Shown here: positions 26,728-34,878 of the stretch, in pieces
How the letters are laid out: the number at the start of each line of letters is the position of its first letter
How positions within the stretch are numbered: position 1 is the stretch's first letter
Assembly: GCA_963779415.1 (NCBI GenBank)
Contig: CAVZYA010000002.1
Coordinates: 1,440,001 to 1,504,000 of the forward strand
Reading direction: 5' to 3'
DNA: 64,000 nucleotides
Source: an uncultured Acidobacteriota bacterium
GTDB lineage: Bacteria > Acidobacteriota > Thermoanaerobaculia > UBA5066
Made by a program: the position numbers and the translations under genes
The notes under the pieces: generated by a model
The model's database searches: none
What the model was told of the DNA's origin: nothing
Seen by the model: the letters and a program-made list of their open reading frames with translations, nothing else

Positions 26728-26788
26728 GATGGCCGGAGTTTTAAGAGAAGTGCCTGGCCCGCGCCATCCTCAAGCCGATCCAGCCGGG

Positions 26789-26804
26789 TGATGCACTTGC
26801 ATCA
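26789..26804. promoter_or_regulatory. Palindromic operator-like site
   Basis: TGATGCA-CT-TGCATCA in the intergenic gap upstream of the tetraheme cytochrome. Confidence 0.45.
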
Positions 26805-26866
26805 GGCGACGAGGCGGCTCCGGCGTCCGCGCCCCGATCGGGGCACGGACGCCCAGGGGCGGGCTG

Positions 26867-29800
26867 TCAGCGTTTGAAGCCGGTCTGGCGGTCCACCTGC
26901 CGGATCCGGAGATAGAGGAGCAGGGCGAAGACCGAGATGAAGGCCGTCGCGAGAAGGAGGCCGTTGCGGCGGAAGCGGTACTCGCTCCAGACCTTCGCGG
27001 TCCCTTCCCTGAGCTGGGTGATGCTCCGGCCCGCCGCTTCGGAATTCCGGAGGAAGTCGCTCCGGTCGAACGTGTGGATGCCGAGCCGGGTCTTCCGCAT
27101 GGCGTCGCTGACCGAGCTGGCCTGGAACCGGAGATCGTCCACGTCGAACCCCCGCTCGGCGAGACGGTCGATCTCCTTGCCAAGCGCCGCCGAGTCGCCG
27201 GCGAGGCCGGTGATCGTCGTGTAGAAGAGGGCCGCCGTCTCGATGCACTTCGGCTGGCCGTACTTCTGGTGGCAGTCGACACAGAGGGCCTTCGGTCCGG
27301 GCGCGAGCATCGCGTCCGTCGGGGCGGCGATGAGGTGGTTCCCGTGGCAGGTGGCGCACTCGGGCCAGCCGTGCTTGTCGAACGCCTTCTTGTGCGGGCT
27401 TCCGTCGAAGAAGGCGCCGTTTGCGGAGTGGCAGGTCCGGCAGACCTGCGAGACGTAGGACGTCTGGGGCGGCGTCGCGGCGTGGTTCCCGTGGCAGCTG
27501 TTGCAGGCGGGCGCCCCCTTGTCGTGCTTCTTGAGAAGGGCGATTCCGTGAACGCTCCGCGAGGTACTTGTCGAGCTGGTCGGTCGGGATCGGCGTCTTG
27601 CCGTCGTCGAGGGTGTACCCCTTCATGTAATCGGCGTTCGCATGGCATCGGCCGCAAGTCGTCGGGATGTTCTCCCGATAGACGAGGGAGACAGGGCTGT
27701 CGGGGCCGCGGATCCCGTGGACGCCGTGGCAGCTGATGCACTGCGCGACCTTGGAGTCCTTCTTCCCGAAGAGGAGCTGCCCGTGGCGGCTCGTCCGGTA
27801 CTTCACAAGCTGGTCGACCGGGAGGGACGGGTTGTAGTCCCTCATGAAGTCGCTCGAGGAGTGGCACCGGGCGCAGAACTCCGGAATCCAGGTCCGGTCC
27901 TTCGTCCGGACCTCGGACTTGGGCCACCGCTTGTAGATCTCCGGGGACATCTCCGTGTCGGTCGGCTTTCCGCCGTGACAGCCGGAGCACATCAGCCCCT
28001 TGCGGAAATGAACGTCGTTGACGACCTGGGCGAGGTCGAGGTGCCCCTGGGGACCGCTCCGGTCCTCGCGGATCCGGAAGAGGATCTCGTCCGGCATGTC
28101 GGGGTTCGTGTGGCAGAGGACGCAGTTGTCCGAAAGGACCAGCTCGGTCTTCCGGTCGTCGAGGTCGAGCGAGAGAAGAGTCGCGAGGTGGGCCGGGGAG
28201 CCGATCATTCCCGAGGCGGCGGCCGCAAAGAAGAGCTGCTGCGCGTGGCTCGGAAGCTCGCGGAAGTGGGTGCGGGCCTTTTCGGAGAGGACCGGTTTTC
28301 CCTTCTCCTCCGCGAGGAAGAGCTTCTGGAATCCCTCGGGCCAGGTGGTCTCGACGACGTGGCCCGGGCGCCGAGGCGGCGGGCGCGGCAGGGGCCGCGG
28401 GGGTGGCTTTCTCTTCGCCCCGGGCGGGTGAGGGGATCGCGAGAGCGGCGGCGACGAGGAGCGCCGCCGCGGCGGCGCTGCCGCGGCGCGTGAAGCGGTA
28501 GAGCCCCCAGAGGGCGAGGGCCACCGCGGAGAGCGCTCCCGCGGCGAGCCAGCTGACGTGGGCGAACCCGTTCAGGAGGGCCTGCAGGAGGACGGCCGCC
28601 GTGAATGCGAAGGCCGTGTGGCGGAAGCGCCAGCGGCGGAAGGCGCTCACGGCGATGCCGAGGCCGAGGATCCAGAAGGCCGCCGTCCGCGCGATCACGG
28701 CCGCGAGGGCCGGATCCGCGGCCGGGTCCTTTCCTTTCGGCACCACGACCCCGATGTCCCACGCCTTGAGCGTCAGGAGCCCGATGAAGAGGAGCCCGGC
28801 GACGCCGAGGTCCGTGAAGCAGGGGCTCGGCTTTCCCTTCGCCGCGTTCCGGTCGAGAAGCGGCACGAAGAAGGCGATTCCCATCAGGACCGTCGAGAGG
28901 AGGAGGCACGCCTGCGGTCCCTCCATCCCGAGGATGTGCGCCGGGAACTCCCGGAGCATCTGGTAGACCCAGAGGAAGTACCACTCCGGCTTGATCCCCG
29001 GGTAGGCGGGCTTCAACGGGTTCGCCTTGTCCCCGAGCGCCCACTCCATCCCCGGAATGCCGGGCCCGAAGGGGAGGACGACGGCGAGGATGGCGAGGAG
29101 GTTCAGGCAGAGGACCCAGAGGAGGAGGTCCCGGAGGGCGAAGTTCGGGAAGAAGGGCATCCCCTTCCCGCGGGGCGCCTCGCCTTCGTGGCCGAGAGGC
29201 TCGGCCATTCCCTGCCGCTGGACGAAGAGGAGGTGGACGCCGATGAGGCCCGCGATGACGAGCGGAAGGATGCAGACGTGGAGGGCGAAGAAGCGGTAGA
29301 GCGTCTGGACCGAGACCTCCTCGCCGCCCCGCATCACGCGGAGGAGCCACGGGCCGACGAGAGGAACGGACTTGACGGAGTCGGTGCCGACCGCCGTCGC
29401 GAAGTAGGAAAGCTCGTTCCACGGGAGGAGGTAGCCCGAAAAGCCGAATCCGAGGACGAGCCCGAACATCAGGAAGCCCGTGTACCAGGTCAGCTCGCGC
29501 GGCTTCCGGTAGGCCTTCACGAAGAGGATGCTGAAGAGGTGGACGAGGACCGAGAGGCTCATCAGGTGGGCCGACCAGCAGTGGATCGACCGGACGAGCC
29601 AGCCGAACGGCACGTGGCCGACGAGGTATTTCATCGACTCGTACGAAGTGTTCTCCCCGACCTCGTAGTTCATCAGGAGGAGGATTCCCGTCACGATCTG
29701 GACGGTGAAGAAGAAGAGGGAGACGCCGCCGAAGTAGTACCAGACGGTGGAGTGCCCGCCGAGGGGAATCTCCTTGTGCCGGAGGAACTCGACGAGACCG

Positions 29801-29889
29801 GAGAGCTGGAACCGCTCGTCGAGGGCCGTCCAGAGCCGTCGCGGGAGGCCGGCGGGGCGGCGGGGGCCGGCGTGGCGCTCACGCGGCAC
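26867..29889 (-). CDS. Cytochrome b (Rieske/cytb complex) apparently fused to a nine-heme cytochrome c with C-terminal TM; frameshifts near 28370 and 27560
   Basis: Four heme-b His, GYLLPW, PEWY. After frame correction: CVLCH, CSGCH, CARCH, CISCH, CGRCH, CNSCH, CRTCH, CATCH, CVDCH. No stop codon between the cyt b and cyt c parts. Start may be GTG 29882 or 29889. Confidence 0.8.
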
Positions 29890-30450: not shown

Positions 30451-30804
30451 CTAGCGTCTCCGGGAGCGCCCGAGGACGGCGTCGGCCTCGGATTTCGCGC
30501 TTCGCTCCACCTCGCCGCAGACGATCGAGCAGATCTTCTTCAGCGTCGGGTCGGAGATGGCGTAGACGGTCCGCGTCCCCTCCTTCCGGCGGGAAAGGAG
30601 GCCTGCCGCGTGAAGAAGGGCGAGGTGCTTCGAGACGTTCGCCTGTGTCCCGCCGACGTGGTCGAGGATCTCGTTCACCGAGGCGGGGCCTTCGAAGAGG
30701 CGCTCGAGGACCCGGAGGCGGGTCGGCTCGCCGAGGGCACGAAACCGGGCGGCCACGCGGTCCCGTGCCGCCTCCGAGAGGACGAGCCCCCCTTCCGTTC
30801 CCAC
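30451..30804 (-). CDS. ArsR/SmtB family transcriptional regulator
   Basis: FRALGEPTRLRVL, QANVSKHLALL, RRKEG..VY; C-terminal CSIVC. Confidence 0.9.
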   Translation of the reverse strand: MGTEGGLVLSEAARDRVAARFRALGEPTRLRVLERLFEGPASVNEILDHVGGTQANVSKHLALLHAAGLLSRRKEGTRTVYAISDPTLKKICSIVCGEVERSAKSEADAVLGRSRRR

Positions 30805-30875
30805 CTCGTCAATATGGGCAAGGAGCGCGGCTACGTCAATCGCGGAAGCGCGGGAGGCGAGAACGGACGCGCAGG

Positions 30876-30894
30876 AGAGGCCCGACGGGCCCCT
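30876..30894 (-). promoter_or_regulatory. Putative bacterial SECIS hairpin
   Basis: mRNA AGGGGCCC-GUC-GGGCCUCU; G-first apical loop 19 nt downstream of the in-frame UGA at 30906-30908. Confidence 0.6.
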
Positions 30895-30899
30895 TGGCG

Positions 30900-31109
30900 T
30901 CACCCTCACGTGAAGCGGCCGGAGCCGCCGCACGAGGACGACCCGCCGCCTCCCGTCCCCGAGGACGAGGTGGCGAAAGCGGAGAAGAGCTTGAGGACCG
31001 AGGTGGAGCCGCAGGCAGGACATTCCGGCGGCGGACCTTCGTCCCGGACGCTCCGGATCTCCTCGAAGCGTTCCCCGCACTCCCGGCAGACATACTCGAA
31101 CATCGGCAT
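30900..31109 (-). CDS. FmdB-family zinc-ribbon protein, probable selenoprotein (UGA at 30906-30908 read as Sec, true stop 30900-30902)
   Basis: MPMFEYVCRECG...CPACGS; RBS GGAGGA; ends SSCGGSGRFT-TGA-GGG-TGA. The CDS itself is well supported; the Sec reading is inferred. Confidence 0.8.
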
Positions 31110-31123
31110 CGGAATCCTCCGTC

Positions 31124-31408
31124 TCAGGCGCTGGCGGCGTCGACGCCCCAGGTGATCATGTGCGCACGTTCCGCCGCCGGGCACTCGGACCGGACGGCGT
31201 CCCGAACCCGTCCCACCTCGTCGTCCTCGAGCAGCGTGAAGATTACCGCCGAGGTCTTCGGGAAGGCGGCCGAGCCGAGGCGGGGCCCGGTCGTTCCGAT
31301 CCCGACGGCCTTCGGGATCTCGGTGAAGCCGCGGACTCCCGCGCGCGAGAGGATCACCTCGATCTCCTCCTTGCAGGCTTCGTCGACGAGGATCATGAGG
31401 AGCTTCAT
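31124..31408 (-). CDS. PII-like small protein (PG0541-type, transporter-associated)
   Basis: MKLLMILVD...GVRGFTEIPKAVGIGTTGPRLGSAAFP, a GlnB-like pattern; ATGA coupling to DUF2892. Confidence 0.7.
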   Translation of the reverse strand: MKLLMILVDEACKEEIEVILSRAGVRGFTEIPKAVGIGTTGPRLGSAAFPKTSAVIFTLLEDDEVGRVRDAVRSECPAAERAHMITWGVDAASA

Positions 31409-31598
31409 GCGGTCTGGTCCCTCACCCCGGTCTTCCGGAGGATCGCCATCATCGGGCACCACCTCGTGAAGGCCGACTGGAAGAGGTTCAGGCCGACGAA
31501 GGCCGTGAAGAGGTAGAAGGCGGGGTGGACCCATGTGCCGAGGGCGACGGAGAGGACGACGAAGAGGCCGGCGATCGCGCGGAGCATCTCGTTGACGT

Positions 31599-31602
<4 letters not shown>
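31405..31602 (-). CDS. DUF2892 / YgaP-like membrane protein
   Basis: 65 aa, two TMs, [17 protein letters not shown]. Confidence 0.88.

Positions 31603-34878
<3,276 letters not shown>

Follow-up and report, generated by a model that had tools for sequence, protein, structure and literature searches.

A candidate FmdB-family selenoprotein with a predicted penultimate selenocysteine and a SECIS-like hairpin in the 3' untranslated region

What becomes of a reading frame that meets a UGA, a single glycine codon, and then a UGA again? The question is raised by a short gene on the minus strand of a 64,000-nucleotide stretch of DNA from an uncultured Acidobacteriota bacterium (GenBank assembly GCA_963779415.1, contig CAVZYA010000002.1, positions 1,440,001 to 1,504,000), referred to below as the window. 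The gene encodes a small zinc-ribbon protein of the FmdB family. An earlier note on this DNA suggested that its first UGA is a hidden selenocysteine (Sec) codon, served by a hairpin resembling a selenocysteine insertion sequence (SECIS). Comparison of the locus with its relatives indicates that this is very probably the case: the first UGA would be read as Sec, and the gene would encode a 69-residue selenoprotein ending in Sec-Gly. Such a C-terminal Sec would be a variant beyond the catalogued FmdB selenoproteins, in which Sec sits inside the ribbon.

The gene starts with an ATG at 31109 and reads MPMFEYVCRECG...CPACG...SSSCGGSGRFT, followed by TGA-GGG-TGA; direct reading of the sequence thus confirms the tail described earlier. 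Matches to TIGR02605 (66.9 bits, cut-off 31.3) and PF09723 (55.4 bits, cut-off 34.4) place the product in the FmdB family. Its N-terminal ribbon is of the MPxYEY..CxxCG...CPxCG type, with CxxC motifs at residues 8-11 and 30-33. All four ligand positions are Cys codons, and codon 68 is the sole in-frame UGA ahead of the terminator. If the frame is read through, the C-terminal motif is Cys60-x7-Sec68-Gly69. In an AlphaFold2 model built from a 52-sequence alignment, with Sec entered as Cys, the ribbon has block pLDDT values of 84, 86, 76, and 89 (residues 1-40), while the tail is disordered (56, 49, and 52 for residues 41-69); the tail is kept in two alignments of relatives. A profile search of the PDB returned generic zinc fingers as the closest solved structures.

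Downstream of the two UGA codons, 8 base pairs, one of them G-U, join a 5' arm (30894-30887) to a 3' arm (30883-30876) across a GTC loop (30886-30884). The loop begins 19 nt and the stem 11 nt past the first UGA; from the second UGA, the corresponding distances are 13 nt and 5 nt. The stem length, loop, and loop distances are all as the earlier note had given them. The 11-nt spacer agrees with the E. coli optimum. There is no U-tract 3' of the stem, and the strict motif occurs only once in the 4.36 Mb genome, so the hairpin is not a repeated element. In the proposed mechanism, SelB carrying Sec-tRNA(Sec) would bind the hairpin 11 nt past the first UGA, resulting in insertion of Sec. The second UGA, one Gly codon later, would terminate translation because the hairpin lies too close to it. 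With the stop only one codon past Sec, the SECIS would fall wholly within the 3' untranslated region (UTR). The recoding mechanism is the ordinary bacterial one; it is the geometry, a penultimate Sec and an untranslated SECIS, that is unusual. Because gene callers end the frame at the first UGA, the last two residues would be lost. The truncation that had been expected of standard annotation is indeed found: among 26 close database homologues, 24 carry the tail, and all 24, including the predicted product of this gene, are annotated as ending ...RFT.

Close relatives preserve this arrangement. All of 40 related genomes have FmdB matches; 30 loci were fetched, and 19 were parsed by script (these tallies include the unpublished genomes G025 and G030). 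Sixteen of the 19 end in [R/G]F[T/S]-TGA, one or two codons, and then a stop, and the remaining three have other tails. The second stop in the 16 is TGA in 12, TAG in three, and TAA in one. The intervening codons encode Gly, Ala, Ser, or Met, and the codon after the TGA changes synonymously among GGG, GGT, and GGC. A hairpin of the form GGGGCCC-G(U/G)C-GGGCCCC is present in 15 of the 16 (L030 differs), and L045 has a compensatory change in the stem from G-C to A-U. SelB is found above cut-off in 37 of 41 genomes.

A wider and less biased sample was obtained by scanning contigs with N-terminal peptide patterns only, which confirmed 562 relatives, of which 80 loci were analyzed. These were classed by protein tail alone: 38 have a Cys no more than 12 residues from a final [F/Y][T/S/G/R] (tail-type), and 42 do not (other-tail). 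According to their record titles, the tail-type loci span Acidobacteriota, Chloroflexota, Armatimonadota, and Deltaproteobacteria/Desulfovibrio. TGA comes first at 37 of them and TAG at one, versus 32 TGA, six TAG, and four TAA at the other-tail loci. The earlier note had called for an alignment that would reveal a conserved UGA-then-stop ending, and in 35 of the 38 tail-type loci, a second in-frame stop of any kind follows after one to three further codons (37 of 38 when up to seven codons are allowed), whereas only 7 of the 42 other-tail loci have a second stop within three codons. Within that distance, the second stop is TAG in 16, TAA in 11, and TGA in eight of the tail-type loci, and TGA in three, TAG in two, and TAA in two of the other-tail loci. 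Furthermore, five of these seven other-tail loci (L077, L090, L093, L100, and L126) look like further variants of a Sec tail. In genomes of 42-50% GC (L063, L083, and L099), the first stop is TGA and the second is TAA. In L094, from a Thermoanaerobaculum metagenome-assembled genome, the gene ends ...SSGFS-TGA-GGT-ATC-TAG; cultured isolates exist for Thermoanaerobaculum and Holophagales. An exhaustive phmmer search yielded 3478 representative clusters at E <= 0.001. Of the best 150 of these 50%-identity clusters, 81 have a Cys followed by an ending that falls exactly at [F/Y][T/S/G/R], namely FT in 32, FS in 30, FG in 14, and FR in five.

The hairpin distinguishes the two classes as well. At 36 of the 38 tail-type loci, the first stop is followed by a stem of 5 bp or more whose loop contains G and begins 13-25 nt from that stop, compared with 11 of the 42 other-tail loci and 16% of shuffles; at 30 of the 38, the stem reaches 6 bp or more. 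Thus, the ending in TAA or TAG without a hairpin that the earlier note had named as grounds for refutation is not the rule among the tail-type loci, 37 of which have TGA first. Across the 36 hairpins, the distance from the UGA to the start of the loop ranges over 15-24 nt and is most often 18. The most frequent loop sequences are GUC (nine), GGUC or GGUCG (eight), and CGUGN (nine: CGUGU in five, CGUGA in two, and CGUGC in two), so that GGUC or GUC loops, four GGUCG included, account for 17 of the 36. The inner stem takes 18 different forms, and every stem position shows several types of Watson-Crick pair. A MAFFT alignment of the 3' regions left the hairpins out of register, and the stems were scored by script instead. 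Folding energy separates the tail-type from the other-tail loci modestly (median z of -1.06 versus -0.18; Mann-Whitney p = 2.6e-4 for loci that are not independent).

The genome of the window contains genes for Sec synthesis and other selenoproteins. It has selA (439.7 bits), a tRNA-Sec (66.1 bits; identified by ARAGORN as SeC with anticodon tca), and selD (347.8 bits), which itself carries an in-frame TGA (...SAG-TGA-ACK...). The earlier note had held that a genome lacking selA and selB or selC would speak against recoding; selA, the tRNA, and selD are in place, whereas selB is present but lies in three frames. There is one in-frame TGA in fdhA (1363.5 bits). In addition, a glutaredoxin-like selenoprotein of UXX-star family 1 is encoded at C1:1577518-1577752 (L171:119-352; NF041114, 102 bits, cut-off 72). 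This gene has two in-frame TGAs, at U-P-H-T and in ...GGA-Sec-Gly-Ile-stop, and 17 nt past the second of them comes a hairpin of 8 bp with a GUC loop. Similar GUC-loop hairpins lie 17 nt after the UGA of selD and 19 nt after that of fdhA, the latter being the same distance as in the FmdB gene. A scan of the genome for a TGA with a hairpin of 6 bp or more and a GUC loop at 16-22 nt returned 60 places; the three that were followed up, fdhA, the FmdB gene, and the UXX-star gene, are convincing.

The tail also tracks with SelB. Of the genomes harboring the 38 tail-type loci, 32 have SelB above cut-off, five have fragments, and one has none; this last genome is that of L086, the single TAG exception, which has no second stop. 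In the phylum sample, SelB is found in 229 of 301 genomes (the phylum tallies include the unpublished genomes G025, G168, and G270). Among the matches listed (150 of 583) to a read-through profile, those that pass through a TGA and reach the end of the model sit in SelB-positive genomes with two exceptions: the genome of the window itself and G399 (86% complete), where a fragment resembling the SelB N-terminus lies at the end of a contig. The SelB-negative genomes G147 (99% complete) and G193 (79% complete) carry other tails; in a third, G132 (100% complete), the FmdB locus was left unparsed by the script.

Several points nevertheless weigh against recoding of the first UGA. All of the evidence for it is drawn from sequences. 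In these GC-rich genomes, TGA is the commonest stop anyway, as the other-tail loci illustrate, and because the loci share ancestry, the counts are less independent than they look. The hairpin of the window has a minimum free energy z of -1.85, and 21 of 500 dinucleotide shuffles are equally stable; alone it is only mildly beyond chance, and therefore the weight comes from comparison across loci. Even there, the best stem was chosen for each sequence, which makes the pairing partly a matter of construction, and thus the shuffle and other-tail controls, not the pairing, carry the argument. Lastly, homologues with Cys at the UGA position, for which the earlier note had advised looking, were not found: [F/Y][T/S/G/R]-C-x is seen in none of the best 150 representatives and none of the fetched loci, and a Cys form is absent from the 26 parsed of 27 further loci and from the 26 database hits. 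The usual support from Sec/Cys homology is therefore missing, although a Cys homologue is customary supporting evidence and not a mechanistic requirement. The majority use of TGA and the absence of a Cys form would both suit a protein that simply ends ...RFT, with a hairpin that acts as a terminator or an mRNA-stabilizing stem, and the hairpin does sit where a transcription unit ends, just ahead of a promoter-like box for the downstream ArsR gene. Yet an ordinary stop is highly improbable given the nearby second stop that sets the tail-type loci apart from the controls, most of whose few near second stops themselves follow Sec-like tails. The synonymous variation of the inter-stop Gly codon, the use of TGA and then TAA at 42-50% GC, the fixed distance from UGA to loop, and the stem without a trailing U-tract argue in the same direction, as does a loop identical to those of the genome's own selD and fdhA SECIS elements.

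A different objection concerns whether this strain can decode Sec at all. Its selB (C2:454618-456515) is full-length but occupies three frames as a result of two 1-nt insertions, seen when it is set against selB of the congeners G003 and G007, where the gene is intact. Taken at face value, these would mean that the family is a genuine selenoprotein family but that Sec decoding is dead here, leaving a 67-residue truncated product; rpoB is intact, so frameshifts are not found everywhere in the assembly. However, the first insertion site is covered by two public contigs of 651 nt (21 other letters) and 151 nt (two other letters), both of which omit one base 3 nt from the extra selB base and so restore the frame; this check extends to the first site only, the second being without cover. 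The RND pump of the window is broken by a similar 1-nt insertion specific to this genome, and CheckM completeness is 92% for this 3-contig assembly versus 99% for G003. Moreover, selD, fdhA, and the UXX-star gene keep their in-frame TGAs and intact hairpins. The selB insertions are probably errors of assembly, and loss of decoding has only a slim chance of being correct. Least probable of all, to the point of near-dismissal, is that the tail is not a working arm but the precursor of a ribosomally synthesized and post-translationally modified peptide (RiPP) or of a selenobacteriocin-like peptide. The TIGR02605 description likens the tails to some bacteriocin precursors, and the available text of a review includes among its families a selenobacteriocin with the motif SGUG (PMC13188914). 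Near 53 tail-type loci, however, no recurrent maturation, export, or immunity genes are found (a single radical SAM gene lies at L137), there is no NCBIfam match to TIGR04081, and the folded zinc ribbon is the best-conserved part of the protein. With maturation genes not seen near those loci, the RiPP idea was dropped.

If Sec is indeed inserted, what might the arm do? In the window, the gene order is RND pump, YgaP-like transmembrane protein, PG0541-like protein, the FmdB gene with its proposed Sec, and ArsR. A neighborhood scan of 223 greedy open reading frames (ORFs) at 53 tail-type loci found RND pumps (ACR_tran) at 10 loci, DUF302 proteins directly downstream at seven, OsmC at six, CsoR-type repressors directly downstream at five, P-II-like PG0541 proteins at four, thioredoxin and the YgaP-like membrane domain at three each, rhodanese at two, and ArsR at two, plus that of the window. 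None of these families reaches two ORFs among 150 of 174 ORFs near 38 other-tail loci, a control dominated by one phylum. The swinging-arm redox or sulfur carrier proposed in the earlier note would fit these neighbors. From them, the function tentatively favored is a thiol/selenol redox or sulfane-sulfur relay arm, a preference held with less than even confidence and based on gene neighborhood only. The arm would cycle between a Cys60-Sec68 selenenylsulfide and a thiol/selenol form, and would pass on reducing equivalents or sulfane sulfur within a module for thiol/persulfide stress that is controlled by ArsR- or CsoR-type regulators.

The same neighbors place second a role in which Sec is inserted and the arm binds soft metals or metalloids (Cu(I), Hg, Cd, or As), serving as a chaperone or buffer for the RND pump and a metalloregulator. 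The gene of the window adjoins an RND pump, which has a partner of the PG0541 type, and a regulator of the ArsR/SmtB family, pumps and CsoR-type "metal-sensitive repressors" recur at the tail-type loci, and other FmdB subtypes end in Cys clusters that resemble metal sites, such as CxxC...CxxC-H. The available text of a 2026 catalogue also describes several C-terminal Sec families as suspected metal binders (PMC13188914). Metal binding by the arm is still rather unlikely, since most of the recurrent neighbors, namely OsmC, thioredoxin, rhodanese, and a Sec-peroxiredoxin, belong to thiol redox or sulfur metabolism. In addition, the ArsR and CsoR families, which would seem to speak for metals, also include persulfide sensors. 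The peroxiredoxin is encoded at L065:3616-4440 (minus strand) in an Anaerolineaceae metagenome-assembled genome, where ...DFTFV-TGA-PTELS lies 1.4 kb from the FmdB gene with the proposed Sec; its TGA is Sec at the peroxidatic position, in a known family.

The missing Cys form can be set beside the variety of FmdB tails. Other subtypes end in CxxC...CxxC-H, GPCxCGAPxRGxC, or CCGGSCGCG, with any stop codon and with neither a second stop nor a hairpin. A subtype whose tail has a cluster of four Cys (CxxC-x4-5-CxxC followed by H, K, or R), found at L144, L148, L149, L155-L157, L160, and L163, uses ordinary stops without a hairpin, and the cluster looks like a second metal site that replaces the Cys/Sec arm. 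Because these subtypes end in Cys-rich clusters, the Cys/Sec arm would seem to be one Cys-based tail among several alternatives and not the product of a Sec-for-Cys exchange at a single aligned column. At the five other-tail loci with Sec-like endings, a TGA, two or three codons, a stop, and a hairpin follow tails such as ..ACLPGG, ..CAPSGGG, ..CGPVT, and ..CCQGTST, and they probably represent additional subtypes of the Sec tail. Similar C..G(G)(T/S) endings occur in about 21 of the best 150 representatives. It is possible, though more doubtful than not, that the Sec-tailed FmdB proteins form an obligate-Sec family, one of the commoner bacterial selenoproteins of soil and sediment lineages, that all catalogues and pipelines have missed and whose selenolate chemistry goes beyond that of a thiol. 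The oversight would then arise because the extension is only 2-4 residues long and the SECIS is untranslated. In such a family, the arm could carry sulfane sulfur, selenium, or a soft metal between the partners of stress modules controlled by ArsR or CsoR.

FmdB proteins have been listed among selenoproteins before. In the available text of Zhang and Gladyshev (2008), Global Ocean Sampling (GOS) reads gave two FmdB selenoprotein sequences with a CxxU motif, and 807 homologues with Cys were counted (PMC2398784). A 2022 review gives the FmdB motif as U/CxxU (PMC9312934), and the 2026 catalogue, which covers 119 prokaryotic selenoprotein families, has in its available text a single FmdB entry, TIGR02605, with the motif UxxU, two Sec residues, and GOS as its source (PMC13188914). 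Thus, the earlier note was right to name FmdB as a predicted selenoprotein family (PMC2398784), but these records, in the text available, place Sec in the CxxU of the ribbon and not in a tail. As described there, the GOS proteins share with the window protein a TIGR02605/COG2331 domain, SECIS-dependent UGA recoding, and an unknown function. They differ in the position of Sec, which lies in the ribbon; in the window protein, the ribbon is all Cys, the proposed Sec is penultimate in the tail, the SECIS-like hairpin is part of the 3' UTR, and the Cys form was not found. A C-terminal Sec in FmdB is described in none of these catalogues, and full-text searches turned up none, although subscription papers or supplements could hold one, and NCBIfam release 20 has no fitting model beyond TIGR02605.

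Precedent for the architecture comes from elsewhere. The UXX-star group (NF041114, NF041211, NF041212, and NF047338) is an architectural precedent for C-terminal Sec with a 3'-UTR SECIS: as in the window gene, Sec lies one or two residues before the C-terminus, and the hairpin is in the 3' UTR. The fold, however, is glutaredoxin-like, with a second Sec at U-P-H-T, and none of the four models matches the window protein at E <= 10. Another family of small proteins, NF041197 (dual CXXC motif small (seleno)protein), likewise combines two CXXC motifs with one Sec, and it too was rejected as an identity. The window protein is unmatched, the FmdB relatives L063 and L071 reach 12.6 and 10.9 bits against a cut-off of 40, and the best match in the genome of the window (17.4 bits) lies elsewhere than the gene in question. 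The earlier note also drew an analogy with thioredoxin reductase, whose C-terminal redox centre is an adjacent Cys-Sec pair (GCUG). The penultimate Sec-Gly on a flexible tail does correspond, but the analogy is partial because in Cys-x7-Sec seven residues stand between the two rather than none, and the window protein has no flavoprotein domain. A parallel in geometry is the pET-TRSTER construct for mammalian thioredoxin reductase in E. coli, in which, according to the available text, a penultimate UGA with a 3'-UTR SECIS works, the minimal loop being GGUC (PMC3834832). Like the window gene, the construct as described there has a penultimate UGA, then Gly, a stop, and a SECIS in the 3' UTR; unlike it, the construct is artificial and encodes a flavoprotein, whereas the window gene is natural and encodes a 69-residue zinc ribbon with Cys-x7-Sec. 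Since the engineered construct works, the bacterial machinery accepts the geometry of a penultimate Sec and an untranslated SECIS.

If the first UGA does encode Sec, then databases hold a large proportion of short FmdB proteins in a form that ends just before their sole selenium atom, and selenoproteome counts for Acidobacteriota, Chloroflexota, and other lineages are too low. The family would expose a blind spot in standard searches, which look for Sec/Cys homology and for conserved sequence beyond the UGA, because its Sec lies 1-3 residues from the end, it has no Cys form, and its SECIS is in the 3' UTR. It would also be a natural counterpart of the penultimate-UGA and 3'-UTR-SECIS design engineered for recombinant selenoproteins in E. 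coli. Finally, it would offer a handle on FmdB function, in the form of a Cys/Sec arm tied to regulators of thiol, persulfide, or metal stress.

Table 1. Features at the FmdB locus, in window coordinates (position 1 is the first letter of the window)
Feature	Position	Strand	Remarks
Ribosome-binding site, GGAGG	31116..31120	minus	6 nt 5' of the ATG; read from sequence
Proposed full coding sequence	30900..31109	minus	69 codons (Sec 68, Gly 69) plus terminating UGA
Zinc-ribbon domain	30978..31109	minus	Residues 1-44; Pfam and NCBIfam matches
Gly/Ser-rich flexible tail	30903..30977	minus	Residues 45-69: Cys60, Phe66, proposed Sec68, Gly69
Cys60 codon	30932-30930	minus	
UGA proposed as Sec codon	30906..30908	minus	TGA comes first at 37 of the 38 tail-type loci
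GGG (Gly) codon between the two TGAs	30905-30903	minus	
Second UGA, proposed true terminator	30900..30902	minus	One Gly codon past the proposed Sec codon
SECIS-like hairpin, 3' UTR	30876..30894	minus	8-bp stem, GUC loop, 11-nt spacer
ArsR/SmtB-family regulator, downstream	30451..30804	minus	NF033788, 85.1 bits; PF01022 match
PG0541-family P-II-like transporter-associated protein, upstream	31124..31408	minus	NF045581, 55.3 bits, cut-off 45
YgaP-like transmembrane protein (DUF2892 type)	31405..31602	minus	PF11127, 50.5 bits
RND efflux pump, several frames, limits approximate	31599..34870	minus	ORF list; ACR_tran matches

Some features of the flanking genes may be added. ArsR appears to start at a GTG near 30804, and a -35/-10-like box 5' of the gene is kept in L023-L025. 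In the window, this box, CGATTGACG ... CCCATATTGAC, occupies 30805-30842 on the minus strand and ends about 7 nt 5' of the ArsR start; it is also found in L024 and L025. The box is probably the promoter or operator of the regulator itself, and the ArsR mRNA may be leaderless. In the RND pump, the one 1-nt insertion that is specific to this genome relative to G003 and G007 lies at L023:2552, and the cytochrome genes at 26770-29889 in the window likewise look split in the ORF list.

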